Below, in pieces: positions 1-55,804 of a DNA stretch of 64,000 nucleotides. Within the stretch, counting starts at the first letter, position 1, and each line of letters opens with the position of its first letter. The position numbers and the translations under genes were made by a program. The notes under the pieces are model-generated. The model was not told where the DNA came from. It made no database searches and saw only the letters and a program-made list of their open reading frames with translations. The stretch spans positions 186,001-250,000 of the forward strand of contig JAYWIR010000032.1 in assembly GCA_036172245.1 (NCBI GenBank), given 5' to 3'. The stretch comes from Raillietiella orientalis (Eukaryota).

Positions 1-3000
1 GCAGCGCCGACTCTTGCCACTTCAGGGGAAGAAGCCTGGATCCTATCAGTATTGGGGGCCACTTCAGGTCATCCGTCGGGATGCCGAGCAGCCCGCCCCA
101 TCTACGAAGTCCACGAGGGAAAGCACTCGGGGTCGTGGCATCCGCCAGTTCTCCCATGGTCCATCCGCTCATCTTCTTCTCCTTGCCTGCGATTCGGCAG
201 GAGACTTGCCACTTTGGCTTGCGGCCGCTTGTTAAAGCCCTCCAGAGGAAGGGCAGGGTCGAAGCTAGTGGGGTGGTCTATGCCCACGTGCTCCTGGCGG
301 TACACTCCAGAGTAGTCCGCAGTGTGCAGCGGGCGTTGGGGCCGAATCGCAGGCGGTTCAAGTCCGGGGAAGTCTGGAGGTTCAGCTTGGCCCACGTCGC
401 AACTGATTCTTCCAGCCAGGCGGAGGAGTCGGCGGGGCTGCATACCGTCCAGCCGTTGTCTCTGACCAGGGCTTCCATGCGTTCAACAAGAAGGCCGCAT
501 CTTCTCACCTTCCTGCCGGAGCACAGAAGGTACGACGCGAGTCCTTGCGTCCTGGACACACGGCTGGCGAGGATTCGGGCCGGAACGCACCAAGGGGTGC
601 TCCATGACTTTGCTGCGATGGCGAGGGTTCACCATCGCAGCTGTATTTCCAGGCGCTCCAGCGTCAGGAGGCCGAGACCGCCGTCCCGACGAGGAGCGCA
701 TAAATCATCCAGAGGCACACGTGGCCTCCCGCTGCCCCAGAGGGCTATGCGGAGTAGGTCTTTTGTCCTCTTTTCAATGTCACGGGGGACGAAGCACACA
801 AAAAGCAGGGAGCGGAGGATGGGAGCCGCGAAGGCGTTCCACACCGAGGCCCGTTCCGGCAGAAGGAACTTGCCTTCCAGGAACGGGCCGATTGCCAACT
901 CTACCTTCTGGAGACGACCTGACCAGGCTTCTGCGAGGCAGAAGTCCCCCAACGGGACACCCAGGTACTTCAGGTACCTGGCCGTGGGGATCCCCAAGCG
1001 GATCCAGTCAGGCCGTCCGACCCACGTCGCACCCACCGGTACGACCGACGACTTCGCCTTGTTTACCCGCAGTCCAGTCCCACGACTTAGCAGGTCGAAG
1101 AAATCCTCGACTGCGGCTGCCGGGGCGGACATGGGCAACATGAGCAGAAGGTCGTCGGCGTATGGTGCTACGGCGGGCGTGCCGAGGCACTAGCTGGGCA
1201 GGGCAGCCAAAGTCACCCTGTACGCTCTCAGCACCAACTCAAAGTAGGTGCTAAAGAGCAGGGGACTGAGGCTATCGCCCTGCCGTATGCCCCGCCGCAC
1301 CGACACGCCGTACACCTGTTGGCTGGAAAAGCAGATGTTAATTATGGCGTTGCGCCAGCAGGAGCGCAGGAAGGAGAGAAGGGAGGGTGGGAAGCCCATG
1401 CGACCCAGGAGCTCCAACAGTAGCTCCTGGTCAACGCAGTCGAACGCCTTATGGAGATCGACCGCGATCGCTAGGGCCCCCTTCCCAGCCCGGGTGTCCA
1501 TTCCCAGCCCAGCTGGCGGCCCCAAAGTGGGGTTGCCAATCTTTCCGCCAGTTTCATTCAGGCAGCGTTGCACATGGAACCATGTGCTCGCGAAGAACAA
1601 GTTGGCATCCATACTTCGCTTGGGAACAGCGTATGTCTGCTCCGGGCTAATTATGGAGTCTGCCACCTGTCCTAGACGCGAAGCTCACAGTATAGCGATG
1701 AGCTTGGCGTCCGTATTCACAATTGTGATCGGACGCCAGTTGCCTAGGGATCTCAGGTCTCCTCCCTTCGGGAGGAGCCACACACGGGCTGACCGAAACG
1801 AGGCGGGAACGTCGCCTTCGTCTCGGATCAGCCCGGTCAACTGAAGCACCAGGGGTGCCAGCTCTGCCGCGAAACATTGAAAGAATTCCGCAGGCAGGCC
1901 ATCCTCCCCTGGCGCCTTTCGCCTCTTGAGCCTTTTAATACCGGCGAGAATTTCACCGGTAGAAAAAGGCTCGTCGAGGCTGATCTTCTCCTCCTCCCCT
2001 ATTGCCGGGGCTCCATCCGGGAGCAGGAGCCGCGAGGCGTTCCGCTCTGGGGGTGCCCTAGCGTAGAGGGAGGAGTAATAACGTCGCACTGGGTGCCTGA
2101 TCGCAAGTGGGGCGGATCGCTCTTGGCCCTGGTCGTCCAGCAAGCTGGCCGACCCGGATTGCCAGGCTTGGCGTTCGGCCCCGGCTCGATATTCCGCGAG
2201 GCGACGGACATTCGGGGTCCTCTCGTACCGGCGGGCCTGTAGATAAGCCCGATGGTTCCGAGCCCCCTCCCCGAATCCGGGGGGCAGGCGGTGCAGGGGA
2301 AACTCCTCGCAGAACTCGCGGACCGAGGCCTTGAATAGTTCCCAGTCTTGGAGACTGCGGAGGGTGACGCCTCTCAGGAATTCGCGAAGGTGTTCTTTCG
2401 CACCTGAGAGCCGCGTCCAGTCCCCAGGCAGCCGCCACGCCCTAAACGGGGGTCCTTTGTCGCGCGGGCAAACCTCGGCGATGATCCTGGAATGGTCCGA
2501 CAGCGTCGACGCAACTTTTCCCCGTTTGCCGACCCGCGAGCACAGGTCGACATCCAGGAAGAAGTGGTCGATGCTGCGGTCCATTCCCTCCGCGTCCGTC
2601 AACAAGTTGCGCGTGCGCATGGCAGCGCACAACTCGTTGGCCGTGCGTTCTTGTGCTTCGGGCTCACCTGACAGCAGACGGAGATTAAAGTCCCCAGCTA
2701 TCAGGTGTGCCTTCCGCACGTTCGTATCGGCCAGCCAGTCGCGCTTCAGGGTTTCCAGCAATCTGCTACGGTCGCTGTATCCCCCTTACCCGCTTGGGGC
2801 GTACACGTTCGTGACGATCAATTCGATCGAGTCTGACCAGCTGAGAATCAGCTGACCGACCCGACCGTCGTCATCGAAGCGTACGCCCTTCACGGCAGCG
2901 TCAATGGCCGGCTTCACGAAAAACGCGACCCCACAGGTGTTGCGGGCGCCGCATCGCCAATACAACCGACCCCCCGCGATCGTCTCGATCTCCTGGGCGT

Positions 3001-3151
3001 CTGCCGCGGTGATCACGTGGATCTCCTGCAGCAGGGCCAGGTCGAACTCACGCAGGGTGTCGGCCGTATCTCGTCTGTTGCCGTCGTCGCGCAGCCCGTT
3101 GACGTTCCAACTGGCCACGCGGATTCGACGGCGACAGGCGAGCCCAGGTGT
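1..3151 (-). pseudogene. Element A ORF2 (APE endonuclease + reverse transcriptase) with in-frame stops
   Basis: WNVNG, LQE, NVYAP, GDFN, IDH, SDH; KAPGEDG, WRPIT, DLHKAFD, RQGDSLSPLLF, YADD, YLG. The ORF pieces starting at 3118, 2761, 1666, 1141 and 559 are all in one frame. Confidence 0.92.
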
Positions 3152-4901
3152 TATTCCTGGGAAATCGGCTCTGCGGCGTCCGCCACCTGTTGGGGCGGGA
3201 CGCTAGGTGGAGCAGGAGGGACAGGTGCCTCGAGCACCTGGTCCCCCTGCTCCATCGGTGACGGCGCGTCGAGCGGGTCACCCTCAGGTGGGGTCGCGCC
3301 TACCTGCTGGCCCTCCTCCATAGGGGTGGGCTCCTCAGGGTCCGCGACGGCAGGGGGGATTTCGCCCCCCTGCTCACCCTCCTCCATGGGGGTGTCCTGC
3401 TCGACGGCTTCCGCGCGTGGGAGCTCCCCCTCCGGGATTCCCACGCTGCCGGCGACTTCCTGCTTCTCCTCCTCGCTCGTGGAGGGGAGGCGCTTCCTCG
3501 GCTTTTGGGACTTGCGCCCCGTCTTCCGGGGGGGTGCCTCCGACGAGGAGGATGCACTTTCGGCCCCCAGGTCGCACTCACCTGCGGGGGCCTTCTTCGG
3601 CGGAGCCGGCCTTCGCACGGCCTTGCGTGAGGGGTTCTCACGCTCAGCCAGCGTGGCCGCGAGCTCCTCCGCCGCCTTCGCGAAGGCGGCGTCCTCGCCG
3701 GCGGCGAGCGCGTCGCGCGTCTCACCCTCTGTGCAAACAGAGGGTTCGCCGTCGCAAACCTCGGGCGCGGCGGAAACGGCGAGGGGAGGCTCGTCTCCCC
3801 GGGTGGCAGCCTCGGGAACGCTGATGCGCTCCAGTGCTACCGAGCACTCGCGGAGAGTTTTAGATCGCGGACCAGGTTTTTTCGCCTTCGCGACCAACTT
3901 TTCTCCGCCTTCTCTTTTGAACCCTTTTTGGGTTCTTTTCTGGCCTTTACCAGCGTCCATCCTTCTTCCTCGCCCGCGTCTTTCGCGGTTTTTTCCGCCG
4001 CCGCCTGGGTTGGAGGAGGAGGAGAAGGCTGCTGGGGCCGGCCATTCTCGCGATGAGGTCTTTCGACCTTATTCATCTTTTTCACCTGTGCCTTTTTGGC
4101 AGCAGGTGGCACCGGGGTGGGGCGTTTAGGGCACACACGACGGACGTGTCCCTTTTCCCCGCACAAGTGGCACTCGATATTCGGGCACCGCCTGCGCACA
4201 TGCCCTACTGCATCGCAGTAGCCACAATAGCGGGGTTTTCCCACGTACCAGAGGTCGACGGGCTGCTTCCCGACCTCCAGTTTGTGGGGTAACCCTGCAC
4301 CCTCGTTCACGGTGACACGCGCTGCTGCCTGGCCACCAAAGAGGCTGTTATAGCCGTCAAAAATGGTTGGCTTTGGCCACAGCGCGTGCACATCTCCGTA
4401 TTTCCTCAATTCCGCGTTCACCGCAGAGCGCGTCATGCGGTTCGTGATCCCCGTTGGATGGACCACTACGGAGCGGTCCACGCTAACGGGTAGGATCTTT
4501 CGGACAGTCACATTCAGCGGGATGTTGATGAGGCGCTGCGCTAGGGCTACGTCTTTGCAGACGACCTCCACGCGTTGCCCCCCGCTGAGTACGGCGAGGC
4601 CGTCAAGATCCTCCTCACGCACGGGGAATTCCTGTAGTGCCTTGCTAAAGGCACGCGCGGTGCGACCGTCGAACAGGTTTCTTACCTTATAAACCAGGGA
4701 TGGTTTATATCCGGAGGCCCTGTAGGCCGCTTGCTCAGCCAAGGTTTCAGCGCTCGGCGCGGCGACCATGGCGCTCCAGCTCCTCGTCTTGGGCGACGAG
4801 GGCGATTCCGGGGCGGATGCCCCTGATTCTGTAGGTCGTGGGGGGGGGCTAGTCTCCCTCACGCCTACCTCCATCGTGGTGTCCTCTGGCAGCGATGCCA
4901 T
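3151..4901 (-). pseudogene. Element A ORF1, gag-like nucleic-acid-binding protein, frameshifted near 3900
   Basis: Starts MASLPEDTT. Knuckles CGYCDAVGHVRRRC and CHLCGEKGHVRRVC. The acidic/Pro-rich C-terminus continues in ORF 3151..3960. Confidence 0.88.
3230..3395 (-). repeat. Three imperfect ~66-bp coding repeats (PMEEG.Q) in A ORF1
   Basis: Translation PMEEGEQGGEIPP...PMEEGQQVGATPP...PMEQGDQV. Confidence 0.7.
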
Positions 4902-4975
4902 CGGACACCAACGATGTGAAAAAGCACACACTGAACCAAAAAAACCGCTTTCCGCAGCTCGTTCGCGGAGCGCCG

Positions 4976-4997
4976 GAAAAACACGTCCGCTCTCGAG
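4976..4997 (-). promoter_or_regulatory. Conserved family-1 5'-terminal motif (putative internal promoter), example copy
   Basis: CT-N7-GGACGTG-TTTT-like sequence at the 5' ends of A, C, F, J, M, R, U, W and X. The function is inferred. Confidence 0.55.
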
Positions 4998-7918
4998 GAG
5001 AGGGATTTGGGGAGGGGCCGCGTAACGAAACAGGGTATCTTCAGGCCCGAAGTTACGCCAGAACCATCGACATGCGCAGGTTAGCAGAGTATCGAGCAGG
5101 AGCCGAGAGGCAAGCCTGGCAATCCGGGTCGGCCAGCTTGCTGGACGACCAGGGCCGGGAGCACTCGGTTCCCGCTCAGAAACGCGGGATAGTGAGGAAA
5201 TTTTACTCCTCCCTGTACGCCAGGGCGCCTCCGGAGCGAGACGTCTCACGACTTCTGCTCCCGGAAGGTGCTCCACCGATCGGGGAGGAGGAGAAAAGAA
5301 GCCTCGACGAGCCTTTCACGATTGACGAGATCCTCTCGGCCATCGGAAAGCTCAAGAGACGGAAGGCTTCAGGGGAGGACGGCCTGCCCGCGGAGTTTTA
5401 CCAAACTTTCGCGGCTGAGCTTACCCCCCTGGTACAGCAACTCACCTTGCTGATTCGCCAGACAGGTGACGTTCCCACCTCGTTTCGTTCAGCAAAGTTG
5501 CGGCTCCTCCCGCAGGGAGAAGACCTAAGGAGCATGAACAACTGGCGTCCCATCACAATAGTGAATGCGGACGCCAAGTTGATCGCCAAGATGTGGGCAG
5601 AGCGTCTGGGACGGGTTGCCAACATCTTCATCAGCCCGGAACAGACTTATGCTGTTCCCGGGCCGAGCATGGAGGCGAACCTGTTCCACGCTTCCACATG
5701 GTTAGGGCTCCAACGAGGAAGGGGCTTATTGAGCAGCCGGAATTCCGGTGCGTCCGTTGGCGGGAGACGGAACGGTCGGGTGGGGAAGGGAGCCCTTGCG
5801 GTCGCTGTCGACTTGCGTAAAGCATTCGACAGAGTCGACCAGAATCTCCTGCTGGAGCTTCTGGAAGGCTTGGGCTTCCCGGCCTCTTTGTTGGCCTACC
5901 TGCGCTCTAGCTGGCGCGACGCGCTCATTAATGTTCTTTTCAGCGGGCAAACCGTGCACGGAGTACCGGTGCGACGCGGCATACGGCAGGGAGACAGCCT
6001 GAGCCCCCTGCTCTTTAGCGCCTTTTTCGAATTGGTGCTGAGAGCGTACAGGGAAACTCTGGCGCACCTGCTGCGCGAATGTCCCGGTACGCCTGCGGTT
6101 TCGGCATACGCGGACGATCTTCTGCAACTGCTCCCTATGTCCACTTCGGCTTCGGAGGTCGAGGAGTTCTTCGACCTGCTGCATCGGGGAACCGGACTTA
6201 TGGTGAACAGGGCGAAGTCGTCCGTAATGCCAGTCGGAGCGGCGTGAGCAGGGCAGCAGGACTGGGTCCGTTTGGGGATCCCCACGGTGAGGTACTTCAA
6301 GTACCTTGGTGTGCCGTTAGGGGACTACTACCCTGCGGAAGCGTGGTCCAGCTGCCTCTAGAAAGAAGAGACGGCGATCGGCCCGTTCCAGGACGGCAGG
6401 TTCTACCTGCAGGAACGGGCCGCGGCGTGGAACGCTTTTGCGGCACCCCTCCTTCGCCCTTTGCTTTTTGTTTGCCCTCCTCAGCGGAGTCAAAGAAGAG
6501 GACGAAGGACCTCCTGAGGATCGCCCTTTGGGGCAGAGTGAGGCCCCGAGTCCGTCTTTCGGACTTGTGCGCTCCTGGTCGGGATGGTGGTCTGGGCCTC
6601 CTGACGTTGGAGCGGCTGGAGCTACAGCTCCAGTTCCGAGTTGTCGCCTTTATGGCAGAAAATTGGTGCACCCCATGGTGCCTCCCTGCACGTCTCCTCG
6701 TCGAGCGGGCCACCGGCAATGCGGGACTCTCGTCCTACTTTGCACTCCGAAGCCTTATCTGCCACTGCGGACTTTAACTTCGGAGGGCGGCCAAGCTCGT
6801 GAAGAACAACTCGGCGCGGATCCTCGTACGCCCCGCGAACTGTCCTGCCTGGCTGCAGGAAACCGTGCGCACGTGGGCGATGATTCAGGAGCAGAGCCCG
6901 CAACACGAGCGAAAAGCTCTGTTCGGGCCGCATGCCCACCGCACGCTCCGAGAAATCATCGAGGATCCCCGAAGGAGAGCGTGGGCACAAAGAACCTCCC
7001 TTGCTGCGGTACTGCCTACCCTACGGGAACATCTGGGCAGCGACGTCGCGGCACAATGGGAGGTTACTGTCAAGATCGCCAGCAGGGCAAAGAAGATCGG
7101 GGATTGGAGAACGGGTCAGCTCACCAACGCTGCGACCCCGAGGACCACCCCAAATGGACTGTTGCGCTGGGGAGAGCTACTGGATGTTCCAGAGGAACAT
7201 CTCGAGTGGCCCCCGGTGCTCATGGACTCGCGCACCCTCCCCATGAAGTGGCAACAGTCGGCACTGATGGTGTTGCATTGGGGGCTTCCTTGCAACGCCC
7301 GCCGACACCACTGGACGCGGGGGGGTGTCAACCCTAATTGTGTCAGGTGCGGGGAGAGGGAATACCTCCCCCACCTGTTAGTGGATTGTGTTGCCCTCCG
7401 TCCCTTGTGGGAACGCTTTGCCGCAGCCCTGGGGATCCCCGCAGGCAACCCCAGAGACGCTTTGCTCCCCCTCTTCGTCCGTGACGCCCTGCCTCCAGCG
7501 GCCTTGCTTGCAGCCCTGTGCTGCCTACGCGGGATCGTCGTGGCATGGAGCAAAGCGACGGGAGGATCCAGCGACAGGGATGCCAACGTGTATGCCGCCC
7601 GTTTCCTCAGGATGGCGACGCGATGGCCCCATCTGGAACCACACACGCAGAAGCAGCTTGCCGGCATCCTCCACAGGATGACGGACCCTCCCAGCAGACT
7701 GTGATCCCTTCGCGCTCCCTCCCTGATTTTTGTTTATTTTTTTGTTTTCTTTTTGTTTCGTTCCCCCTCCCCTCTGCTGCCGAAGTCGACCGCGCCGGTC
7801 TGCGCACCGGTATCCCGGCAAGCTATATCTTTCCAGGGTGTGGCTGGACTACTGGTCCATTCACAGATTATATAGGTTTATTCGTGAGAATAAACGTCCC
7901 GGCGCACCCGGGTTTCAA
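4998..7918 (+). mobile_element. Element B: 3' part of family-1 LINE (RT, C-terminal Zn finger, 3' UTR, intact 3' end)
   Basis: DLRKAFD, QGDSLSP, YADD (ORF 4895..6247); CVRCGEREYLPHLLVDC (ORF 6799..7704); AATAAA 7889-7894 followed by a hairpin. Confidence 0.92.
7889..7918 (+). terminator. Family-1 3'-terminal signal (example): AATAAA + CCCGG-CGCAC-CCGGG hairpin + short A run
   Basis: The same arrangement, variably degenerate, ends copies at about 11113, 11922(-), 17513(-), 22952, 27082, 32729, 42081(-), 43110(-), 47161(-) and 55758. Confidence 0.8.
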
Positions 7919-10531
7919 TCGAGGTTGCGGAGGATGACGCCTCTCGGGAACTGTCGGAGATGTTCCGCCGCACCGGAGACGCGCGTCGAGTCCCCTTGGC
8001 ATACGCCACGCCCTGGATGGTGGTCCTTTCTCGCGTGGCATAATTTCGATTATCAACCGGAAGTTGTCCGATAGCGTCGACGGAATTTTCCCTCGTCTGC
8101 CGACCCGTGGGCACAGGTCGGCGTCAAGCAAGACGTGGTCTACGGTTTGGGCCATTTCCGGTAGGTCCCCTAGCAAGTTGCGCGTACGCATAGCGGCGCA
8201 CAACTCGTTGGTTGCGTCTTTTTGCCTGCAAGGCACACCTGATAGCAGGCGGATGTTGAAATTACCACCGATCAGATGTGCCTTGCGTACGTTTGTATCT
8301 GCCAGCCAGTCGCGCTACAGGGTTTCGAGGAACCGGGAACGTTCACCGTACCCGCGTCCTCTGCTCGGAGCGTACACATTAGTCACGACAAGATCGATCG
8401 AGTCGGACAACCTAATTATAAGCTGGCCAACCCGACTGTCCTTGTCGAATCGTACGTCCTTGACGAAGGAAGCGACTGCTGGCTTCATAAAATACGCGAC
8501 GCCACAGGTGTTGCGAGCGCCGCATTGCCAAAACAGACGACCCCCTGCGATCATTTCGATATCCTGGGCGATCTCCGCGGTGATCACGTGGATCTCCTGC
8601 AGGAGTGACAGGTCGAAGTCACGCAGGGTGTCGGCCGTGTCCCGCCTGTTGCCGTCATCGCGCAGCCCGTTGACGTTCCAGCAGGCTACGCGTATCCTAC
8701 GGCGACAGGCGAACCCAGGTGCTAACCCTGGGAAACTGTCAATGGGCCTCCCACCACCTGGTCGAGCTGGACGCTAGGCGGAGGGGTTGCGTCGCGCACC
8801 GCTTCTTCCTCCTCCATGAAAGCCAAATTTTCAGCAGTGCCGTGCAGAGAAAGGGGGGGTTCATTCACCTGCACTTCTTCCTACATGGGAGTCGCCAGCG
8901 GCACGGTGTCGGGGAATGAGATATTCCACCGTCGCCTCCCACGCTGCCGGCTTCCCCCTCGGGGGCCGATTCATCCGCCTCCTTATTGATCCGGATGCGC
9001 CTCCTTTGATTCTGAGACTTCCGTCCCGTCTTCTTTGGTGGCTCCCCCGCTGAAGAGGACGCACTTCCGACGTCCGGATCGGCCTCACCTGCCTCCGGAG
9101 CCTTCCTCGCGGCCGGCCTTTGCAAGGCTTTTCGCGAGTTCTTTTCACGGCCTTGCAATTCAGCCGTGAGTTGTACCACCGGCTCCTGGAAGGCGGCCTC
9201 CTCGATCGCGTCGAGCGCGGCGCGCGGTTCCCCCTCTGTTTCGCCAGAGGGATCACCATCGACCATCGCAACTTCGGCGGACGCGAGGGGGGGGATTGCT
9301 CCCCCGGTGGCGGCATCAAGTGCCTTCACACGTTCTAATTTTACCGAACATGCGCGGAGCTTTTGGCGGCACGGGTTTTCGCGCTGCGTTTTTGTTTTCA
9401 CCGCGTTTCGTTCGGGACTCCCGGGTTTTCTTCGTGGCTGTACCGTCTGTCAGCCTTCGCCGTCACCAGCGTCGTCGGGAGTGTTCTCAACCGACGTTTG
9501 CTGTGAGGGCTTAGGGACTGGCATCTGGGTGTTTGCAGCCTGTATCTGTTTATGCGTCTCCCCCGTGCGTTTCCCCTTTTCCTTTTTTGCAGCGGATGGG
9601 GGCGGGATTTCTCTTCTTGGGCACACCTTACGGATGTGGCCCTTATTTCCACATAAGTGGCACTGGATGTTAGGGCACCGCTTTTTTAGATGCCCTGTAG
9701 CATCGCAATGGCCACAATACTTGGGCTTACCCACGTACCAAACATCGTCTTTTTCTTCGCCGATATTCAGTTTGTGGGGAAGCCCAGCATTCTCTGGTAG
9801 GGTGACGCGGGCTGCGGCCATCCCTCTGAATAGCCTTTCGTACGTTCGGAAGACATTGGGTTGGGCGCAATACGCGTGCACACTACTATGCTTCGACAAC
9901 TCCTCATGGACTCTGGTTTTGTCCATTCGGAGTGATACGCCTGTGAGGTGGACCACGATGGAGCGGTCCTCCGTCACAGGGAAGATCCTGCGGTCGTCCA
10001 CCGTAATAGGGATGTTCAGCAGTCGCTGCGCCAGACTTGCCTCTTTGCATGTCAGCTCAACTCGCTGGCCCCCACTAAGGACGGATAGGCTTAGAAGGTC
10101 TTCCTCCCTCACGTTCAAACTTTGCAGCTCCATTCCGAAGGAGCGTGCAATTTTTTCATCAAACACACTGCCCACCTCATAGATCAGAGACGGCTTGTAG
10201 CCGCTGTTCTTGTAGGCAGTCTGCTCCGCTACTGCATCCGGGGATGGTGCAGCAACGACGTCACTCCAACTCCTCGCCAATGGCGAAGAGGGTCGCGAAG
10301 GGGCGGTTGCCCTCGATTCCGATGGGGCAGGTGCCTCGGATTCCTAGGGGGCGGATGCCCCCACTTTTATTGGTGGAGAAGATCATGTCGCTTCTCCTAC
10401 TTCAAATTCCATGGCGGTGTCCTCAGGCATTTCTGCCATGGGACACCGGTGCTCCCACACACCAGACAACCAACGAAAAGCTTCCCACTAACCAGTCCCT
10501 GGAGCGATGCCAAACCACGGCCGCTCCCTAG
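7919..10531 (-). mobile_element. Element C: 5' part of family-1 LINE (5' UTR, disrupted ORF1 10439-8722, EN)
   Basis: 5' end CTAGGGAGCGGCCGTGG; knuckles CGHCDATGHLKKRC and CHLCGNKGHIRKVC; EN WNVNG...NVYAP; broken at 7919 by the 3' end of B. Confidence 0.9.
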
Positions 10532-15733: not shown

Positions 15734-15741
15734 TGATGCGT

Positions 15742-17409
15742 TTATTGTGGGGTGGAGGCGGCCTCCTCCCTTGCGGGAGGCGGCTTGTTGGCGGCCGTGA
15801 CGACGGTCGGCTGCTCACACGGGAGCACGTCGTCCACAGCGACTTCCATGGGGCTGGCTTCCGAGACACGGATCGGAGAGGGGTCGCGTGGCGCGACGCA
15901 CATTGCCTCCTCCTCCGTGCCCGAGGACATGGCCTCCTCCACCTGCGGAGGGGCGACCCGTCTCGGGCAACCGGTCTTCTTACCAGCCTTCCTCTTCGGC
16001 ACGGCTGAGGAAGTAGAACAACCGGCTTCGGTTTCGGACTCGGAATTTTCCGGGCCTTTCACCGTTGCCGGTCGTCTCAAGGCCTTCTTCTCGGCCTTGG
16101 CAGGCTGCCGTAACATGGCTGCCAGCTCTTCCGCGGCCTGCGCGAAGGTCGCGTCCGTTATGCGCGCCGCCTCCTCGCTTTCCGCACCGACGCTTTGCGC
16201 AGGCGCGACAGGGGCGGCTTCATCGATCGGCGCGCAGACGTCCTTCGGTGGCAATGCCGGAACGGCATTGTCGTCAGCTGATGGTGACGTCACTGCGGGC
16301 ACGACCGGCTCAGGATCGACGGTATCGATCGCCTTTACCGTTACTTTCTTTACGGCTCTGGCGATCGAGACGCGTTCGATCTTCACCGTACAAGCGCGGA
16401 CGACCGGTTTCTGCTTTTTCGGCGCCGCCTTGTTTATCTTTTTTGCCTCCTTCTTCTGGGGCTTCTTCCTTTCTACCTTTTGCCAACCTTCCTCGTTCTC
16501 GGCGCTTTCTCCAGCTGGTTGTTCGCTGGTGGATGCCTGAGTAGCGGGTTGGTCGGCAGGGCGGGGTTCTGCCAGTTGTTGGCTTCGGTCCTTTTCCTTC
16601 GGCGTCTCTTCCTTCCTCGCGCCTGACGGAACGGACCTTTTTCGGTTGGGGCACATCCGCCTGATGTGCCCCTTCTCCCCACAGCCCAAGCACACGATGT
16701 TGGGGCATTTCTTTTTTAAATGCCCCGACACCTGGCAAAAGCCGCAGTATACGGGTTTCCCCACATACCACAGGTCGATCTCCTCCTCCCCGACCTGCAG
16801 TCTGTGGGGTAGCCCACCCTCGGCACGTACCGTCACACGCGCAGCGGCGTAACCACTAAATGCCCTGGTGTAACCCAGGACATTGGGTTTTGCCCACAAC
16901 GCGTGAACGGTCCCGAACTTCTCTAACGATTCTCGCACGGCGCTCTTTGCCATGCGCATCGTTATGCCGGTCAAATGCACCACGATGGAGTTGTCCGCCG
17001 TGAACGGGAAGATCCTTCTCCCGTTCACGGTCACCGGCAGGCGGAGCAGCTGCTGAGCCATCCCTGCAGATTTGCAGTTCAGCTCAACCAGCTGCCCGCC
17101 ACTCCTAACCGAAAGCCCGAGGACTTCGTCCTCCGGGACTTTCAACTTTTTAAACTCCGCGGCGAACGACCGCAAAACCGCGGGGGAGTACAGGCCACCT
17201 ACCTTGTAAAGTAGGGCCGGGTTGTAGCCGTCGGCCATATAGGCCCGCTGTTCCTCTGCGGGGGGCGGCGCAGGCGCCGCCACCACCGCGCTCCAAGCCC
17301 TCGCCGGGGCGGGGGACGATTCCGTGGGGGAGATGGCCCCCACATCCATGGGCTGGGGGGACGAGGCTCGCGCGCCCCCCTCCGCCGTCTTTGCGGCGTC
17401 CTCGGGCAT
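15742..17409 (-). CDS. Element F ORF1, intact 555-aa gag-like zinc-knuckle protein
   Basis: ATG at 17409 (MPEDAAKT); CGFCQVSGHLKKKC and CLGCGEKGHIRRMC; basic then acidic disordered tail. Confidence 0.9.
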   Translation of the reverse strand: MPEDAAKTAEGGARASSPQPMDVGAISPTESSPAPARAWSAVVAAPAPPPAEEQRAYMADGYNPALLYKVGGLYSPAVLRSFAAEFKKLKVPEDEVLGLSVRSGGQLVELNCKSAGMAQQLLRLPVTVNGRRIFPFTADNSIVVHLTGITMRMAKSAVRESLEKFGTVHALWAKPNVLGYTRAFSGYAAARVTVRAEGGLPHRLQVGEEEIDLWYVGKPVYCGFCQVSGHLKKKCPNIVCLGCGEKGHIRRMCPNRKRSVPSGARKEETPKEKDRSQQLAEPRPADQPATQASTSEQPAGESAENEEGWQKVERKKPQKKEAKKINKAAPKKQKPVVRACTVKIERVSIARAVKKVTVKAIDTVDPEPVVPAVTSPSADDNAVPALPPKDVCAPIDEAAPVAPAQSVGAESEEAARITDATFAQAAEELAAMLRQPAKAEKKALRRPATVKGPENSESETEAGCSTSSAVPKRKAGKKTGCPRRVAPPQVEEAMSSGTEEEAMCVAPRDPSPIRVSEASPMEVAVDDVLPCEQPTVVTAANKPPPAREEAASTPQ

Positions 17410-17500
17410 CTCTGCCCAGGAACAACCGCTCACAGCTGAAAACACCGAAAACACTCGCGAGAAAAACGCGGAGCACCACAAAAGCACGTCCACCCTCTCA

Positions 17501-17512
17501 GGCGGCGGGTTG
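17501..17512. repeat. Middle copy of a triplicated 12-bp target-site duplication
   Basis: GGCGGCGGGTTG at 17501-17512 and 19143-19154; one-mismatch copy at 11910-11921. Confidence 0.9.
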
Positions 17513-19144
17513 TTCACACCCGGATGTGCCGGGGCATTTATTTCATAGAAATAAACTAACAGAAAAATTGTCGCGTGGCGAACCCGAAGGTTCACCACTC
17601 CATAACAGCTTGCTGGTTACCGGCTCCGTGCCGGAGAGGTCCTTCCGATGCGCGGGGATGGGAAATAAAGAAAAACAAAAAGAAACAAAAAGTTCAAATG
17701 TGGGGGGGGAACAAATGTTGTAGGGATGGGAGGGCGGGGAAGGGATCACGGTGCGCGTGGAGAGGTCCTCTAGATCCTATTCAGGATCCGCACAAGCTGA
17801 GTCCTTTCAGCGCCCAAGTGGCGCCACTTGCAGACACTTCGCGCGAAAACGCGAGTCCAGTGTAAGGCGTTGCCGGTTGGCTGACGCCTTCTTCTGGTGG
17901 CGTTCCAAGCCGCCACTATTCCTCTGATGCAGCAGAGGACTGCTACACTAGCGGGCGAGGACAAGGCGTCACTACAGAAGAGGCGCCTGAAAACGTCCTT
18001 TGGGCCGCATCCGCGCAAGTCCAGGATCGCCGCGAGACGATCCCATAAAGGGCGGATGGCACTGCACTCGATGAGAAGGTGGGGGAAGGTCTCTTTTTCC
18101 CCGCACCGGTCACAATAAGGATCCACAGCCCCCCGGGTTGTGTGATGAAGGCGTGCTTTGAATGGAAGTCCCCAGAAAACCACAAGCAACGCCACATCCT
18201 GCCATTTCATGGAAAGGGATGCACTGTTCCAGGACTCTGGGGGCCACTTCATCTCCTCCGGAGATAGTCCGAGTAGCTCGCACCAGCGTCGAATTCCGTT
18301 GGGCGGGAATCTCGGCGTCGCAGCGTCCGCTAGCTGCCGAGATGTCCACGCCTTTATCGATTGTGTCCTGCCGCCAATAGTGCAGGACACGGTCCATTTC
18401 CCCTGCTCGCTACTGTCCCTGACATTCACAAGGAAGGGCAGCACTGAGGCGAGGGGGGTTATCAAGGCCCACAGAAGCTTGTCGTGGGACTGCACGATCT
18501 CCTGCAGCGTCCAGCGGGCGTGCCTTTTCATACAAGTGTTCCTTGTGCCCGCCGGAACGTGGATCTTTACCCAGGTGGAGACTGACTCGTGCAACCAGGC
18601 GGAGTAGTTCCCTGGGTGGCAGGAGATCCAGGCGTTCTCCCGAACCGCAACAAAGATGCGTCGCAGCATAGAGCCACAGTATGGTCTTCTGCAGACGCGC
18701 GCAGACAGAAACGACAAATGTCCGCCGATTCCGCAGGCTCGTTGGGCCAGGAGGCGTGCTGGAACGCACCAAGGCGTGTCCCACAATTCTGCCGCAAGGG
18801 CGAGAGTCCTGAATCGAAGTTGTATTTCGATGCGCTCCAGCGTAAGTAAGCCAAGTCCACCGTCCTTACGTGGAGCGCACAAGTCTTTGAGCCTCACACG
18901 GGACCTCCCTTTGCCCCAAAGGACTGTCCTCAGGAGGCCCGCTGCTCGTTTTCGAAGAAAATAAGGGGCGGGGCAAACAAAAAGTAGGGGGCGAAGGAGG
19001 GGAGCCGCAAACGCGTTCCACACCGCGGCCCGTTCCTGCAAGTAGAACTTGCCTTCTTGGAACGGACCGATCGCCAACGCTGCCTTTTGGAGACGGTCGG
19101 ACCAGGCTTCTGCTGCGCAGAAGTCCCCCAACGGTACGCCGAGG
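17513..19144 (-). mobile_element. Element G: 5'-truncated close relative of F, head-to-tail upstream of F
   Basis: ORF 17770..19131 aligns with the F C-terminus; the 3' UTR is near-identical; truncated at the YLG motif with GG microhomology to the TSD. Confidence 0.95.
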
Positions 19145-20275
19145 CGGCGGGTTGAACAGCTGGCGTGACGTCACATCGCATCGATCCGTCAGCTGAGCGA
19201 GTATCGATCGCCGGCACGCGTTTGATGGCCACGCTTCACGCTTTTCTTGTTGGGCGTGGCGCTTGCGTTGCCTTGCCCTTCAGCACTTTCGCTGGTGCGT
19301 GCGCGGTTTTTTTAATAATCTTTACTTTACGGTTGACCAGCTGCCAGCCTTCCTCGTCGGCAGTCTCTTTCGGGAGCTCTTGTACCGAGTCCCTTTCCTG
19401 CTTCGCGACTTTTGTCGGAGCCGACAGCTCATTTCCTTTTGTGAGGTTCATTGTGATTTTTGGCTTTCTTTCCTTTTTTGCGAAATTTCCGGCGTTGGAG
19501 CGATGTTCATCAGGCACACTACTTTGATTTTGTCCTTCTTTCCGCAGGTGGGGCAAACCGCGTTCGGGCACCTCTTTTTCAGTTGACCGAACGTCTTACA
19601 GTTCCCACAAAATTTGGGCTTCCCCACAAACCCAACGTCGACGAACTCGTCGCCGATTTGTAGTTTATGGTGAAGCTGCACGCTTTCTCGCCGCGTCACG
19701 CGCGCAACCACTCGCTCACTAAATGCACCGTTCACTCCGAAGGTGTTGGGCTTTCTCCACATTGCAAAAACGCTTGCAAATTTTTCAAGCTCAGTACGGA
19801 TGGCGTTTTTATCCATCCGCACTGTTGTCCCGGTAAGGTGAACTACAATGGAGTGGTCCACCGTGTGAGGGAGTAAATTCCTGCCCTCAAATTGTACGGG
19901 CGTGCAGAGCATTTTGTGAGTAAGAGCTGCATCCTTGCAGAGGAGCTCCGTTAACTGCCCTCCGCTGCGTATTGAGAGGCAAAGTATTTCATGGTCGGCA
20001 ATGCCCATCTTTATGATGGCATTGCCTAACTTTCGCGCCCTTAACGGGGAATATCAATTTCTTGGCTTGTACATGAGGGCCGGATTCTTGCCCTTCTGGA
20101 TGTAGGATTGTATTTCGGTGGCGACATTGGTCGTTTCCGCCGCTGTCACCGCGCTCCAGGCTCTCGCCGTAGTGGCGGGGGAAGGTTCAGAAGTAGTAAA
20201 GGGGTGTGATCCCACCTCCTTTGGCTTGGGAGACGCGATCTTCTTACCTCCCTCACATTAAACTGCGTCCACTGT
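19143..20275 (-). mobile_element. Element E, upstream piece (5' end + ORF1 N-terminal half, disrupted)
   Basis: ORF 19448..20008 with CGNCKTFGQLKKRC; close match to element R. Confidence 0.87.
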
Positions 20276-22981
20276 TCATCGCCTCCTAAGGCGCTACTAC
20301 TCGTTTTACGCGGTAGCGACCACGGAACGCAGTCTCCCGGAGCAGCTTTTTCCGACTGCTATCCCTGCTATCGACGAGGAGGAACGCGCCAGATTGGATT
20401 TGCCCTTCACAGCGGAAGAAGTATCTTCCGCCATGTCGAGCCTGAAGTGGCATAAGGCGCCTGGGGAGGATGGCCTGCCCGCAGAGTTGTTTAAGTGCTT
20501 CGCGGCGGAGCTTTTCTCTCTGGTGGTGAGCCTTTCCTTTCTGATTCGGGAGATGGGAGTTGTTCCCGTTTCTTTCCGCTCAGCAAAGGTGCGGTTCCTG
20601 CCGAATGGCGGGGATTTGCTCCACCTCAGCAACTTACGTCCGATCACTTTGGTGAATTCGGACATCAAGTTGTTCGCGAAGGTATTTGTCGCGCGGATGG
20701 CGAAAATTGATGAGTGCTTGGTAAGTCCGGAGCAGACGTACGCTGTTCCGGGACGGACCTTGGATAGGAATCTCTTCTTAGCGCTAACATGGTTCGAGTT
20801 GCAGCAGCGCGTTGCGCAGCAGAGCCAGGCATCCGAAATCGCCGCTGCTAAAGGTAAGAGGCGGTGTTCAAGGCACCATGAAACGCCGGGGGCCTTCGCG
20901 GTCGCCATCGATCTCTGCAAAGCGTTCGACAGCGTAAGCCAGGACCTCCTTTAGGAGCTTCTGGAACGCCTATTTCTCCCGACGCAGCTCATCGCCTACT
21001 TGCGATCCTGCTGGCGCCACGAGTTATGCTGTATCTCTTTTAGCGGGCGCAACGTGTACGAGGTTTCCATACGGCGGGGTATCAGGCAGTGAGACAGCTT
21101 AAGCCCCCTGCTCTTCAGCATCTCCTTTCAGTTGGCCCTTAGGGCTTACAGGCTGACGCTAAGCAAACTGCCGAGCTCCTGTTCGGGAACTCCGGTTGCG
21201 GCCGCCTATACTGACCACCTTCTCCTGCTGCTGCCAATGTCCACCCCGGCGTCCAGGCTGGAAGACTTCTTTAGGCTCATTCGTCGTGGAGCGTGCCTGA
21301 GCGTCAACAGAACGAAATCAACCGTCGTACCGGTTGGCAATGCGAGGGAGGGGCAGTCCGACTGGATCCCCCCGGGGATCCCCACGAGCAGGTGCTTTAA
21401 GTACCTTGGCATTCCCTTGGACGCCTCCTGTCCATTAGAAGCGTGATGGGACTACTTTCACAAAACCGAGACTGCTCTGGGCCCGTTCCAAGGCGGCAGG
21501 TTTCTTTTGTCGGAACGGGCCTACGTGTGGAAAATTTTCGTTGCCCCTCTCCTCCGTCCCCTCTTTTTTGTTTGTTGCCCTTTCTACTCGGCTAAGCGTC
21601 GATCGCAAAGCATGTTGCGAAACGACTTGTGGGGACCGGAAAAGTCTAGGATACGCCTTAAGTACTTGGCGGCTCCTCGGCGGGAAGCAGGATTGGGCAT
21701 ACTGACGCTGGAGCGTATCGGACTGCTAGTGCAGTTCCGCATGCTGGCACTTTGCGCCCAGCTATGGACTACTCCCTGGTGTGTTCGAGCACGGCTGCTC
21801 CTGCGGCGCTGCACGGGTGGCGACGGACTGCGTTCGTTGCACCTTCCCACGGAGTGCGCCCAGAGAGGATTCGGTTTCTTACTGAAGCAGCTCTCCTCAC
21901 TTCTGGGAAAGCATGCTTGGATCTCCTGCCGGTCGAGGAACCTTAACGCATGAAGGCAGGAAGCCTTATCGTCCTGGGCAGCGGAACAGGATGTGTACTG
22001 TTTGGAACTCCGTTGCGTGAACCTTTCCCCATACTGTCCAGTGTGGGACGTGACTGAAGACCAGGACCAGTGGACACGCCTGGCCGCTACGCCCCTCACC
22101 GAAGCACTGTCTGCATTGATGGTGCGAGACGACAGCGACCTGCCCACGAGGTGGGAGGTCTCTTGCGAAATCGCAAACAAAACCCGACTTCTAGGCGGCT
22201 GGAGGACTTGTGAGCTGGCAGACGTTGCCACGCCTCGAATTCGTGCCAAGGGACTTTTCCGGTGGAGCGAACTCCTCCGGGTGCCCACCGAAGGACTTGT
22301 GGTTATTTCTGCGTGCTTGGACGCGACTGTGTTACCACTTCGGTGGAAACAGGACGCTTTTCTGCTGGTGCATTAGGGTCATTTACTGCAATCAGTGCGC
22401 GCACATGGTTTCCGGGGAGCTTCGTTCCCGAACTGTTCGAAATGCGGAGCGATGGAATCGTTTCCGCATTTTCTGTTTGAATATGGTGCCCACGAGGAGC
22501 TGTTGCGGCGCGTGTCTTCAGCGCTCTTTCACCCCACACACCCCAATGGATTGGATGCGCCGCTTCTTGACGCGTGGCGGCCTATCTCTTGGGGCGGTCG
22601 TCGAAATTATCTGCTGCGTCCGCGTCATTGTCAGGGCCCGCCACCTATTGCAGATGCGAGCAGTCCCAACATCGGTCCCTGAAACCGCAGCCTGCAACCT
22701 GCAAATGGCTGCCGGGCTCCCACATCTGGGAGCAGAAGTGAAGACGAAGATCTGCGGCATTCACCGCCTTTTCTGAAAATAGGAACGGATAAAGTGCATA
22801 CCCCTCTCCCCGCCCTCCCACTTAATTTATTTATTTATTGTCCTTCCCCCTCCAGTTCCGAACTCCCAGTGTGCCCGGCCTGCGTTCCGGCAAATCTACT
22901 CCCCATCTTCTGTTCCCCTTGCCTCGAAACACAGTTCCCTGATATATTATAAATAAACGTCTCGGCGCAACCGCGTAAAAA
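20276..22981 (+). mobile_element. Element H: decayed 3' part of family-1 LINE
   Basis: KAPGEDG, DLCKAFD, YTDH (decayed YADD), CSKCG...PHFL; AATAAA 22952-22957 with a degenerate hairpin. Confidence 0.9.
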
Positions 22982-24133
22982 ACGACGACGCTGCATTCTT
23001 CAATTATCGCGCTACCCTGTTCTTTCATTTTTTGTTGGTAGGCGATTTTTTTCTCCAACCTACTCTCGTTTCATTTTTTGACAGTTCCGACTTGCACCCA
23101 GGCAGCTAACCGGTTTCCTCAACTTTTTCGGCGTTGATCGACGGGGTCTCGGGTGCGGCCTATGCCTTGGACGCGAGTGGCACAGCCTTCGCGCCCGCTT
23201 TCGCCGCCAGCCTTTTCTGCAGCAGGTGGGCAGGTTTTTTAAGGTTTCTCTTGGAAACGACGCGCGCACCGGCTTTCGGGCACACCTCCCTCGTGTTACC
23301 CATTGTATTGCATACTTGGCACTGCACGTGTATACACCGCTTTTGGAGGTAGCCCGAGGTATTGCAGAAGCCGCAGTATTTCGGCTTCCCCACATAGCAT
23401 AGGTCGACGGTTTCGCCATCGACCACCAGTTTGTGGGGAAGAGTGCAGCCCTCCCGAATGGTCAAGCGTGCAGCCGTGAAACCGTGCTGCAGCTCCGTGT
23501 AGTCCTCAAAGGGACTAACCTTCGACCACTGCGCGTGGACCGTTCCATATTCTTCCAATGTGGCGCGAACCTGTTGTTTCCGCATCCGCGCGGTGACGCC
23601 CAATAGGTGGATCATTATGCTGCGGTCCCCCGTAAAGGGGAGGAGCCTGCGCGTCTTCATCACCACAGGGGTTTTAAGCAGTCGTTGGGCCTGCTCTGCT
23701 TGTTTGCAGATGACCTCAACGTACTGACCCCCGCTGCGGATGGTCATAGCGCTGAGCTCCTCCTCTTTCACATCGAGAGCGCGCATCCCCTTTGAGAAGG
23801 CGCGCGCGCTCTTTGAAGAATATAGATTGCCTACCTTGTAGAACAATGAGGGTTTATACCCCCTTTCCGCATAGGTCATCAATTCCGCCGCGGCTGCAGG
23901 CGATGGCGCCAACACAACGGCGCTCCACTCTCGCGCTGCAGCGGGGACCGATTCTGTCGGGGCGGATACCTCCACCTCCATCGCCTCTGGGGGCGACGTT
24001 TCCGCCCCCCCCTGGCCATCCCTGGTGGTCGCGTCAGGCATCGCTGCCTGATCGACCATCGAAACACACGACGCTTGCACTGGAATAGACTTCCTGGCAC
24101 GAGGATCACCGAGAAAACACGTCCTCCCTCGAG
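22982..24133 (-). mobile_element. Element J: 5' end + ORF1 (MPDATTRDG subfamily), broken by H
   Basis: 5' end CTCGAGGGAGGACGTGTTTT; ATG at 24041; CGFCNTSGYLQKRC. Confidence 0.9.
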
Positions 24134-27111
24134 CGATAAAGCATTCTTCTGCGTCAAACAGGAACTCCTCTTGGAGCACCTGGAGAGTCTTGGGTTTCCG
24201 AACAGACTTCTCCTGTACTTGCGCTCCTGCTGGCGTGACGGGCTTATCAACTTGCTTTTCAGTGGTTCCCGAGTTTACAGCGTGGCAAGGCGCAGAGGCA
24301 TAAGACAGAGAGACAGCTTAAGGCCGTTGCTATTCAGCTTCTAGTTTGAGTTGGTGCTGAAAGCTTACAGGCTGACGCTGGCCTTCCTTCCCAGCGCCTC
24401 TCCGTGTACTCCGTCCGTGACAGCATACGCCGACTACCTTCTGCCTATCTTGCTCATGTCCACTCCACTCGGTCGAAGACTTTTTCGAGCTGATCCGTCG
24501 TTGTGCGGGCATGAAAGTTAACAAAGCGAAGTGCTCCGTCGTGCCGGTGGGTACGTCGAGGGAGGTGCAGGCCGACTGGATCCTCCTGGGGATCTCCACG
24601 GTCAGGTACTTCAACTACTTTGACTTCTTGTTGGGCGACTTCTGCTCGTCTGAATAGTGGTCGGACTGTCTTCAAAAGGCATAGATTGCTTTAGGCCCGT
24701 TCCTTAAAGGCAAGTTCATCTTGCCGGAAAGGGCGTGCATATGGAACACTTTTCTTGCCTCCCTCCTCCGCCAATTATTTTTTGTTTGCTTGCCTCCCTA
24801 TGTGGTTAAACTCCGGGCGCAGCGTCTCCTACGTAAGGTCTTGTGGGGCGCTGCACGATCCAGGGTTCGCCTTAAAGATTTGGTGGCGCCATGCCAGGAC
24901 GCAGGCCTGGGCATTCTGACCATCCAGAAGATTGGACTGCAAGTGCAGTTCCGGCTTCTATCCCTATGTGGGAAATTGTGGTCTAGTCACTGGTGTGCTC
25001 CGGCTTGCCATATCCTCCAGCGCAGTGTGGGCAGTGCAGGACTGCTTTCGTTGCTGCTGCGCAACCTTCGCCGGAGAACTGGATTTGGCTACCCACTGAG
25101 GCATTTGTCCTCGTTGTTGTTAGCCCATTCCTAAATTTCCTGTTGCCTCTCCAACTGGAATGCTTGGCAGCAGGAAGCTCTGGAGCAGTGAATTTTCAAT
25201 TTGGATGTGCGTCCAGAGCAGCCGCGATTCCTAAAGGGTTTATTACGGAAACCGCTAGGAATGATCCTAGAGGTCTGGTCGCTTTGGTCCCGGGTTGCCA
25301 TCTCACCGATTGCCGCAGCGCTGTCTGCTCTCAGGGCAAACAACGACAGTAGCCAACCGGCAAGGTGGAAGTTCTTCTGTAGCATTGCAGGAGTCGCAAG
25401 ACTGCTGAGCGGCTGCAATACAAGCGTATTGGTAGAAGCTGCCACTCCTCGTTACCCGGCAAAGGGACTCCTTCGGTGGAGTGAGGTTGTTGGACTACTT
25501 CCCGAAGATCTCGTGGTCCCTTCCTTGTGTGTGTACACCTCCGTGTTCCCGCTTCGATAGAAACAGGATGTTCTGCTTTTTCTGCACTGGGGATTTTAGA
25601 GAAATAAGCGCAGATATTTGGTTTCCTGGGAAGTCGCCTCCCCGAACTGCATCAGGTGCGGGGCGATAGGATCGAGTTCAGTGACATGCGGGAGTTATGG
25701 GGGAGACTTGCTTCGGCACTTTGTCGTCCCCAGGACACTGTTATCGACCTGCTGCGACGCTTGTTCAGCGAAGACGGACTGAATAAATGCCCTGTGTTCG
25801 CAACAATCTGTTGCATCCACGTCATCGTAACGGCCCGCCGTTAGCTAATTTTCCCCGAGTCCCACAAGGGGTGGGGTAAATTTACTTTTCTATAAAAATA
25901 ACATTCACACTACACTTTTACATTCACACTCTCATTCACTCGTTATATCACCACTTTTCACTTTGAAGTCCTGGGGTTCACTCGAGTTCTGCTATCAGGG
26001 TGGGGGTCCAGATGTTTGTCCCCGGCGTCGTCCTCGATCCTCTTCAGGATGAATCTGTACGTCCAGGCTTGGATTCTTCCGCAGTTCCTGATGCCGATTT
26101 CCTTCTTCAGGAGTCCTTGGAGGTTCTCCATCGGAGGTGCGGCTCTCCTGGCTTTCCTCATCTTCCACCACCGCACAAGTATGGCAGTGATGAAGAGGGC
26201 GATGGTCGTCCTCACCATGGGATTGTAACAGGGAACATTACCATCTCCCTGAAACATCCCGGCGAGGATCTCCATTACGGAGCTGGTGGTCCGTCCGATG
26301 ATCCTTTTCAGGATCAGCCAGTCGTGAAGCAGTGTGGGACACGTCAAGATGTGGAGTGTTGTGTCGGTGTCACCACACGCCGTGCAGTCTCTGTCTTCCC
26401 TTCTTCTCGTGAAGTGCTGTAGTCTGGACCCCGTCAGGATTCCTCCATGGTAGAACATCAGGAGGTTGTCCTGGGTGTCCGGCGGAAGGTCACTCCTCCA
26501 GAGCGTCGTGCCGATCGCCAACAGGTTGATCCGGTCACTCCCGTAGCGATCGGCGGCTTCTTGGAGGGCACTGGTGTCGCGGTCCTCTTCTTTAATCAAT
26601 CTTCGGAGGTTCATTCTGGTTACCCTAGACCAGGCGAAGTCGTTGTGGTTGATCCACACCTCGCGGGTCTGGTGGGTAAACCTCCCTAGCATCATCTCTA
26701 TGTACCGGAGTACATGCGAGTGATGTTAGCTACAAGGAAGTTTTCAGCGAATGGACGCTGCCAGGATAGCCGCGAACCTTATGAAGGTAGCTGTCACGTG
26801 GCCTCATCTGCCGAGAAAATTCTCGAGGGATGTCGCCATCGTCAGATAGCGCTTCTAAGAAGGTGAGGAACGTTTAATGCCAGAGATCCCTGACCTCACC
26901 TTCCACTGTTTTTTTGTTTGTTCTCTTATGTTTTTTTTATTTTGTGCCCCGCTCCTTCCGTTATTTTCTTTTCAAAGGCGACCTGCGTGCCGGTGATCCT
27001 TTCGGGCTGAACTTTCTGTGTGGGCCATTCTTGTGTCGTGAAAGGATGAATTTCCTTTCAAGATTGTTGTTTGTTTTTACAAATAAACGTTGCAGCGCAG
27101 CCAGGATTAAA
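24134..27111 (+). mobile_element. Element K: decayed 3' part of family-1 LINE, interrupted by L
   Basis: Begins at DKAFFCV (RT motif), YADY, KGLLRWSE; resumes after L with WPHL; AATAAA 27082-27087. Confidence 0.87.
25848..26724 (-). mobile_element. Element L: 5'-truncated family-2 LINE with 8-bp TSD GTTAGCTA
   Basis: Open 245-aa ORF2 C-terminus with CTACGDTDTTLHILTC, homologous to Y1; TSD at 25840-25847 and 26725-26732. Confidence 0.9.
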
Positions 27112-55788: not shown

Positions 55789-55804
55789 TCGAACGCCTCA
55801 TGCG

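Follow-up and report, generated by a model that had tools for sequence, protein, structure and literature searches.

Alternating L1-like retrotransposon pieces in Raillietiella orientalis: a probable flank of a self-targeting cluster

Self-inserting islands of long interspersed nuclear elements (LINEs) are the proposed centromere DNA of several green algae, and how the elements of such islands find each other is, to our knowledge, not known. A 64,000-nt stretch of the Raillietiella orientalis genome (assembly GCA_036172245.1, contig JAYWIR010000032.1, positions 186,001 to 250,000 of the forward strand; hereafter the window, in whose coordinates all positions are given) raises a related question: pieces of LINE copies follow one another on strictly alternating strands through its left 27 kb, and it has to be asked which events could leave such a pattern. 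The answer that we hold to be the probable one is that these 27 kb are one flank of a self-targeting L1-like cluster, formed mostly by antisense self-insertion at a few re-used spots. It is carried by an almost invariable change of strand from piece to piece, by break points that recur at the same element positions, and by a double insertion whose target-site duplications (TSDs) are still legible.

Identity of the elements and map of the pieces

Open reading frames (ORFs) of the window, taken from stop to stop with at least 100 codons and searched against Pfam, matched RVT_1, Exo_endo_phos and zf-CCHC on the strands that an earlier note on this DNA had claimed. In the sense direction each copy runs from the zinc knuckle of ORF1 through an apurinic/apyrimidinic (AP) endonuclease to the reverse transcriptase (RT); RVT_1 and Exo_endo_phos are colinear in the copies called below A, 11922-17499 and P56, and copy C has the endonuclease only. 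This colinear order identifies the repeats as LINE-type retrotransposons, more precisely as AP endonuclease (APE)-type elements without long terminal repeats (LTRs). LTR-like terminal repeats were not seen in the repeat list of the window, and the copy at 17513-19140 displays the truncated 5' part, constant 3' end and 14-bp TSD that are hallmarks of LINEs. The nearest database protein, P0001 from a metagenome contig, is 72% identical to the RT frame of copy B; against solved structures it matches human L1 ORF2p best (E 7e-40), followed by R2 (E 7e-17), these two being the only retrotransposon RTs among the structure matches listed. A zf-RVT match in the C-terminal frame of P56 is weak (E 8.5e-5, 23.6 bits, under the cut-off of 27.5), and a look-up in the ESM Atlas returned generic RT clusters only. 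The putative L1-like affinity in the name used here comes from protein matches rather than from a clade tree. The copies are mutually 60-80% alike, and the RT tree divides them into at least four lineages: (A, P2), (B, P56), the 11922-17499 copy alone, and (K, H, P4).

The 5' start common to A, C and J reads CTCGAG(A/G)G.GGACGTG; that of E differs and is of a type found again in a second copy at 42574. At the 3' ends AATAAA is followed by about 20-25 nt and then by a short run of 2-6 A, and the motif is invariant in all ten aligned 3' ends, two of these ten stretches having been taken at slightly shifted coordinates. The poly(A) tail expected of the L1 clade or of Zepp-like elements is therefore not what is found, and the short terminal run is compatible with a lost or very short tail. 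In roughly half of the copies, as judged by eye, an inverted repeat of CCCGG, 5 nt and CCGGG stands between AATAAA and the closing run of A (examples are 11922-11950, 17513-17541, 47162-47190 and 7890-7915). RNAalifold, run on the same ten 3' ends, gave no consensus structure.

The window was mapped on three reference copies, namely A, the full-length minus-strand copy at 11922-17499 and the full-length plus-strand copy at 50290-55792 (P56). Element positions are written as r, the position along the sense strand of A, and a full element measures about 5640 nt. The left cluster reads as follows.

A, 1-4998, minus strand: r1-4998; 5' end complete at 4993-4998 (CTCGAG...); zinc knuckle, endonuclease and RT
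Filler between A and B, 4999-5002: unassigned bases
B, 5003-7919, plus strand: r2721 to the 3' end; start lies between endonuclease and RT
C, 7921-10531, minus strand: r2648 to r2; complete 5' end; left break at the recurrent site TCGAGG
D, 10535-11143, plus strand: r5032 to the 3' end; last 600 nt or so, 3' end complete
E, left part, 11145-11910, minus strand: r2125 to about r1290; left break at a recurrent site, again at 42079-42100
E, right part, 19155-20267, minus strand: to r1, with its own 5' end; 89% identical to the 5' part at 42574-43109
Filler between E and H, 20268-20288: unassigned bases
H, 20289/20295-22982, plus strand: r2922 to the 3' end
J, 22983-24133, minus strand: about r1180 to r2; complete 5' end
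K, 24134-27111, plus strand: r3547 (RT 'KAFD' codons) to the 3' end; carries an insertion of about 1 kb
L, 27125-28655, plus strand: older copy, its 5' end 13 nt past the 3' end of K, head to tail

This map upholds the earlier note in its description of eight LINE pieces, A-B-C-D-E-H-J-K, on strands - + - + - + - +, and in the junctions that it had placed at 4998, 7919, 10532, 11143, 20276, 22982 and 24134, all seven of which prove correct to a few bases. At each of these, alignment edges lie at most 30 nt away, where other copies run on, and alignments that cross a named junction occur at 11143 and 24134 only. The right ends are true termini, the plus copies stopping at the shared 3' end and the minus copies (A, C, J and E) at a 5' start. 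The left ends, all of which had been called broken, do lie inside the element from B to K, but A is merely cut by the edge of the window; to judge from B and from the copy at 43200-45219, what lies beyond is no more than about 640 nt of 3' sequence. When both clusters of the window are counted, adjacent pieces are on opposite strands in 14 of 15 pairs (P about 5e-4), and E additionally holds two same-strand copies (11922-17499 and 17513-19140). The 3' ends of B in C, of D in E and of H in J enter their hosts cleanly, with no spare bases, and the junction of J in K occurs independently elsewhere, at the same codon and in a host of a different subfamily. The left break of C falls at the same element position as that of the copy at 47162-50282 (P4), and the left break of J corresponds to TCGACGAC in intact relatives. 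An apparent extension of B upstream to 4862 was rejected as tblastn over-extension with almost no identities.

Double insertion in E and recurrent landing sites

Nesting is seen directly in E, the two parts of which are separated by the following features.

11908-11921: TSD copy 1, GGAGGC-GGGTTG, 3 nt shorter
11922-17498, minus strand: full-length copy of 5.6 kb with a 624-codon stop-free frame over ORF1
17499-17512: TSD copy 2, one mismatch, between the two inserted copies
17513-19140, minus strand: 5'-truncated copy, r4022 to the 3' end
19141-19154: TSD copy 3, GAGGCGGCGGGTTG, exact

The two inserted copies show little decay, and over about 1640 nt their identity is 95%. Within the 64 kb, the 14-mer of TSD copy 3 occurs with at most one mismatch only at 17499 and 19141, and a variant with an indel lies exactly at 11908. 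E itself is colinear across 11908-19154: residues 79-416 of the ORF1 query align on one side and residues 456-604 on the other. E is thus proven to have been split by two copies that entered one target, the TSD being retained between them, that is, by a double insertion. It follows that nesting occurs here, that the TSD length in this family is close to 14 bp and that one target can serve more than once. An earlier study describes double insertions into a single target as a route to LINE dimers (PMC5932611). The nested self-insertion proposed in the earlier note is accordingly seen in E; junctions of the A|B type do not prove it on their own, for a reason that lies in the right-hand part of the window. 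There a mirror-image cluster is found, which was used as a comparison.

41804-57713: mirror-image cluster as a whole
41804-42079, plus strand: piece with its break at r2128
About 42100-42573, minus strand: 3' piece
P1, 42574-43109, plus strand: E-type 5' start
P2, 43127-45219, minus strand: break at r3549
P3, 45220-47161, plus strand: J-type
P4, 47162-50282, minus strand: break at r2646
P56, 50290-55792, plus strand: complete
P7, 55793-57713, plus strand: J-type
From 57714, minus strand: a different LINE, after P7

Break points recur in this list. C breaks at r2648 and P4 at r2646, E at r2125 and the copy at 41804-42079 at r2128, and K at r3547 and P2 at r3549, a J-type 5' end meeting the RT 'KAFD' codons in register both times. 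Three pairs of break points within 3 nt among 15, where 0.13 would be expected (P about 8e-4), support the earlier contention that landing was not random. J and P3 are about 80% alike, whereas their hosts K and P2 are 60% alike and belong to different RT clades, which indicates that the two junctions are independent events and not the result of duplication. By analogy, the break of P4, and probably also those of B, D and H, would be insertion sites rather than random truncations.

A short motif lies at some of the 3' junctions. At three of 11 3' junctions a TCGA begins no more than 5 nt from the flank, namely at B (TCGAGG), at the copy near 42100 (TCGTCGAAC) and at P56 (TCGAAC); for two more the intact homologous site shows it, ATCGAAG of A in the case of D and TTCGACGAC of P3 and P7 in that of H. 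Given 0.0043 TCGA per nt, the probability of three such cases is 1.4e-3 and that of five is 2e-6. Counted by hand, 12 of 18 bases agree between the r2647 and 'KAFD' sites, a hint that the recognition sequence may be longer.

These features suggest a scheme in which target-primed reverse transcription would place new copies in older members of their own superfamily, almost always antisense to the host copy. The preferred nick sites would bear TCGA and lie at r2125, at r2647, in the RT 'KAFD' codons (r3547) and at about r1180; edges of existing copies would be used as well, the target duplication keeping such a site usable. Each insertion would shift the right remnant of its host rightwards, so that the flank would come to consist of alternating minus-strand 5' heads and plus-strand 3' tails, older towards the middle of the window. 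As to the antisense preference, one idea is that the element RNA may pair with a similar genomic copy and expose its sense strand to the nick. Three points are inferred under this scheme: B, D, H and K would have served as hosts and not be neighbours truncated at the 5' end, the missing halves of the pieces would be found left of the window, and the nest would have a depth of seven.

P7 is preceded by 16 nt of antisense 'KAFD' sequence, though it adjoins the 3' end of P56; two origins are considered for this leader, retention of a target duplication or a short 5' transduction whose master copy sat at a 'KAFD' site. The J-type 5' parts at 45206-47133 and 55789-57713 form a direct repeat, 90% identical and 10.6 kb apart, with breaks within 27 nt of each other. 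The repeat begins 14 nt before the element 5' end, within antisense RT 'KAFD' sequence.

Order of events and rival explanations

The earlier note had also seen decay increasing rightwards. A gradient is real: G+C falls from 0.625 in A to 0.53 in K, and the hand-summed in-frame stops per 100 aligned codons are 0.3 in A, 0.48 in B, 0.5 in C, 1.07 in E, 0.86 in H, 0.85 in J (0 with another query) and 1.36 in K. Against position these stops give a Spearman rho of 0.86 (n=7; A was entered as 0.35 and C as 0.55, with ranks unchanged). The gradient is coarse, however, and H and K do not stand in the order that the nesting requires. Terminal branches of the RT tree, which also contain change predating insertion, measure 0.07 for A, 0.12 for B, 0.23 for K and 0.27 for H, and amino acid identity to P0001 is 67.5% for A, 73.4% for B, 51.2% for H, and 64.5% and 45.0% for the two aligned pieces of K. 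CpG depletion as an age marker is absent in most larger pieces, where the observed/expected ratio is near 1 (0.9-1.2); a few have 0.7-0.8.

Several points weigh against antisense self-insertion as the origin of the whole left cluster, beginning with the fact that H is no less decayed than K. The complete copy P56 has its 5' end against the antisense copy P4 (at r2646), but its 3' neighbour is the 16-nt leader with P7, and therefore a 5' end lying against an antisense copy, as at A|B, does not alone prove insertion. A boundary insertion must be assumed at P56, and the same could hold to the left of A. There are unexplained filler bases at A|B (4-5), C|D (about 8) and E|H (21-27), with no TCGA where a 14-nt TSD would start, and these three junctions could equally be 5'-truncated copies beside a 5' end. 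Tests for TSDs of B, D and H as simple insertions met sequence that was too decayed or confounded by the CTCGAG 5' terminus; the candidates, TCGAGG on both sides of B and 7 of 12 positions for D, are explained or weakened by that same terminus. The target of the two young copies in E (CAACCCGCC) is without TCGA, and these inserts lie on the strand of their host. A strand bias of TCGAR in the element was not found (9-12 sense against 10-14 antisense occurrences); since TCGA is palindromic and TCGAR equally frequent on both strands, the motif does not explain the antisense rule, nor does it explain why only a few of some 20 sites were used. The nesting of the main chain is read from the flank inside the window, its mirror halves and their TSDs being inferred. 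Finally, a single public contig of 485 nt, with 25 differences, bridges a junction (17500), so that read support for the assembly is almost nil. One public DNA run contains 0.14 of the sampled words, with short contigs at 90-99% likeness, and no RNA run is listed. An exact 40-mer from the start of the window had no match in metagenome contigs, and a degenerate 3'-end motif hit 12 loci there, about the number expected by chance on a rough estimate, none of them related by blastn or tblastn.

How far the nesting went can be weighed against these points. In its strictest form, which is that of the earlier note, each copy entered the one that was then newest (K>J>H>E>D>C>B>A), with left halves in mirror order beyond the window. 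Every junction type is then as simple insertion predicts, with no coincidence required, K and by analogy P2 and P4 break at sites used for insertion rather than at random truncation points, and the rise of decay towards the right agrees. However, the youngest-looking copies, the little-decayed pair at 11922-19140, sit in old E and not in A-D, which contradicts the rule that each copy went into the most recent one, and in the mirror cluster P56 departs from the pattern; nor does decay order H and K. The 3' end of K adjoins the 5' end of the plus copy L at 27125, head to tail like the pair in E, so that K stands beside L and is not seen inside anything. Moreover, one flank reveals only the chain that crosses the window, and hence 'always the newest' cannot be concluded from it. 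We regard the strict form as rather unlikely. Still somewhat more doubtful is a reading in which the element homes antisense into its own youngest relatives at a few TCGA positions, including the active-site-proximal 'KAFD' of the RT, perhaps guided by RNA pairing. If it were true, each hit would disable the host copy and the island would grow outward with alternating strands; RNA pairing would explain both the antisense rule and a bias to young, similar copies, and LINEs would have in this process a general means of building centromere-like islands.

A different origin of the alternation would be head-to-head pairing, B, D, H and K being 5'-truncated copies beside the 5' ends of A, C, E and J, brought there by target-site re-use or by a twin-priming-like event with two cDNAs; in that case only three or four levels would be genuinely nested (J > E,H > C,D > A,B). 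Re-use of edges is indeed visible in the TSD between the copies in E, in the succession of P56, 16-nt leader and P7, and in K followed by L, and P56 with P4 forms such a pair with both ends of P56 in view. The filler at A|B, C|D and E|H fits as well, as does the fact that in the pairs C,D, E,H, J,K and P3,P2 the inverted 5' piece always ends short of the start of the 3' piece; in addition, double insertion at one site is a described route to LINE dimers (PMC5932611). Yet random truncation would hardly give K and P2 one and the same starting codon, or P4 a break at the place where C was hit, the pairs are not co-derived (J and P3 80% against K and P2 60%), and the candidate TSDs of B and D carry the CTCGAG ambiguity already mentioned. 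We consider pairing as the general explanation rather unlikely, on a par with the strict form. A variant drawn from a single RNA can be discarded. Twin priming of L1, or 5' inversion, reportedly described by Ostertag and Kazazian in 2001, likewise joins an inverted 5' segment to a direct 3' segment with a normal 3' end, and a single RNA supplies its two segments, which meet close to one point. In this window A and B, with an overlap of about 2.3 kb and no more than 69-72% identity in it, are not products of one RNA, and the partners of like junctions belong to different subfamilies, K and P2 being in different clades.

An origin at the DNA level, by inversions, by segmental or palindromic duplication of composite blocks, or by mis-assembly, would leave no record of insertion order at all. 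It could draw on the composite junctions D|E and J|K, which align inverted to the right-hand cluster across the junction, on the 90%-identical direct repeats P3 and P7, and on read support that is almost nil. A giant palindrome between the two clusters was nevertheless rejected, because the shared junctions are misordered for one: K|J lies nearer the middle on the left and its counterpart further out on the right, and the hosts K and P2 are not sister copies. Breaks exactly at element termini and a clean 14-bp TSD are also unlike random rearrangement or chimeric assembly, and we judge such an origin very improbable. Antisense self-insertion with re-use of sites and edges is the probable reading.

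Known systems and the rest of the window

Nested LINE clusters are described for Zepp in Coccomyxa C-169 and ZeppL in Chlamydomonas (PMC3446292, PMC8226300, PMC9940879). Zepp of Coccomyxa/Chlorella C-169 is a LINE that targets existing copies, its clusters having 61% G+C against 53% in the genome (PMC3446292), and its nesting is described as tandem arrays consisting mostly of 3' ends (PMC8226300). By their description, these L1-type clusters are the closest known kind. A single cluster on each chromosome, placed at the centromere, is characteristic of the Zepp type. The likeness extends to copies nested in copies, a G+C-rich cluster, 5' truncation, TSDs and L1-like protein signals, and the difference is that here strands alternate and complete 5' heads make up half of the pieces. 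A poly(A) tail is present in Zepp, whereas the present copies end in 2-6 A. The G+C content of the window is 49-65%, highest at both of its ends, and amounts to about 0.56-0.63 in the LINE clusters as against 0.48-0.52 in the surrounding sequence.

Tandem dimers of transposable elements, including R1 in rDNA, resemble E in having a TSD between and outside both copies (PMC5932611); double insertion gives same-strand head-to-tail dimers and would not by itself produce strand alternation. The likeness to site-specific elements lies elsewhere, in the re-use of few nucleotide positions and a short motif, here TCGA, at the nick. R1 and R2 in rDNA and Tx1L in Tx1D are sequence-specific LINEs that live inside other repeats. 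Here, by contrast, the target is the element's own coding sequence, hit antisense and at several sites, and specificity is partial, 3 to 5 of 11 3' junctions. The literature matches listed and the papers searched from 2024 and 2025 describe neither an antisense rule nor internal sites that are used again, and the matches listed contain nothing specific on nested LINEs of opposite orientation; strand alternation and recurrent sites would be new relative to Zepp-type clusters.

Read base by base, the junctions point to a short motif at the nick, to a handful of positions that are hit repeatedly, to antisense landing with hardly an exception and to copy edges being used again. If the pattern holds genome-wide, the targeting rule could be tested in vitro and the growth history of an island could be read from its strand pattern; if it is local only, the locus is an ordinary, if tidy, nested repeat pile.

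Some features lie beside the main chain. The insertion in K, about 1 kb long, extends from 25839 to about 26880; its first 440 nt are without an identified relative, and the part at 26277-26726 is 80% identical to the 3' region of a second LINE family (57711-58157), on the strand opposite to K. Copy L has the canonical 5' start, about 400 nt before the endonuclease, with most of ORF1 gone, and is either an internally deleted copy or a member of an ORF1-less subfamily. A single old full-length copy over 27125-32745 was considered and rejected, since most of ORF1 is lacking and 2.6 kb of unrelated sequence stand in place of about 1.2 kb of RT. Between the two clusters lie about 10 kb (28656-31278 and 32746-39865) at 48-49% G+C, in which the ORFs of at least 100 codons have no Pfam match and no similarity to LINE copies is detectable; they may be very old repeats or host DNA. 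Adjoining them at 39866-41768, on the minus strand, are short decayed RT and ORF1 fragments with many stops and 37-50% amino acid identity to P0001, which are the oldest layer of the right-hand cluster. At the other end of that cluster the second, distantly related LINE family occupies 57714-63941 on the minus strand, with an endonuclease, an ORF1 zinc knuckle and an RT 29% identical to P0001. Its 3' end breaks P7 at r1988, antisense again, and it contains an internal tandem duplication, 59412-60426 and 60452-61469, the halves of which are 73% alike.

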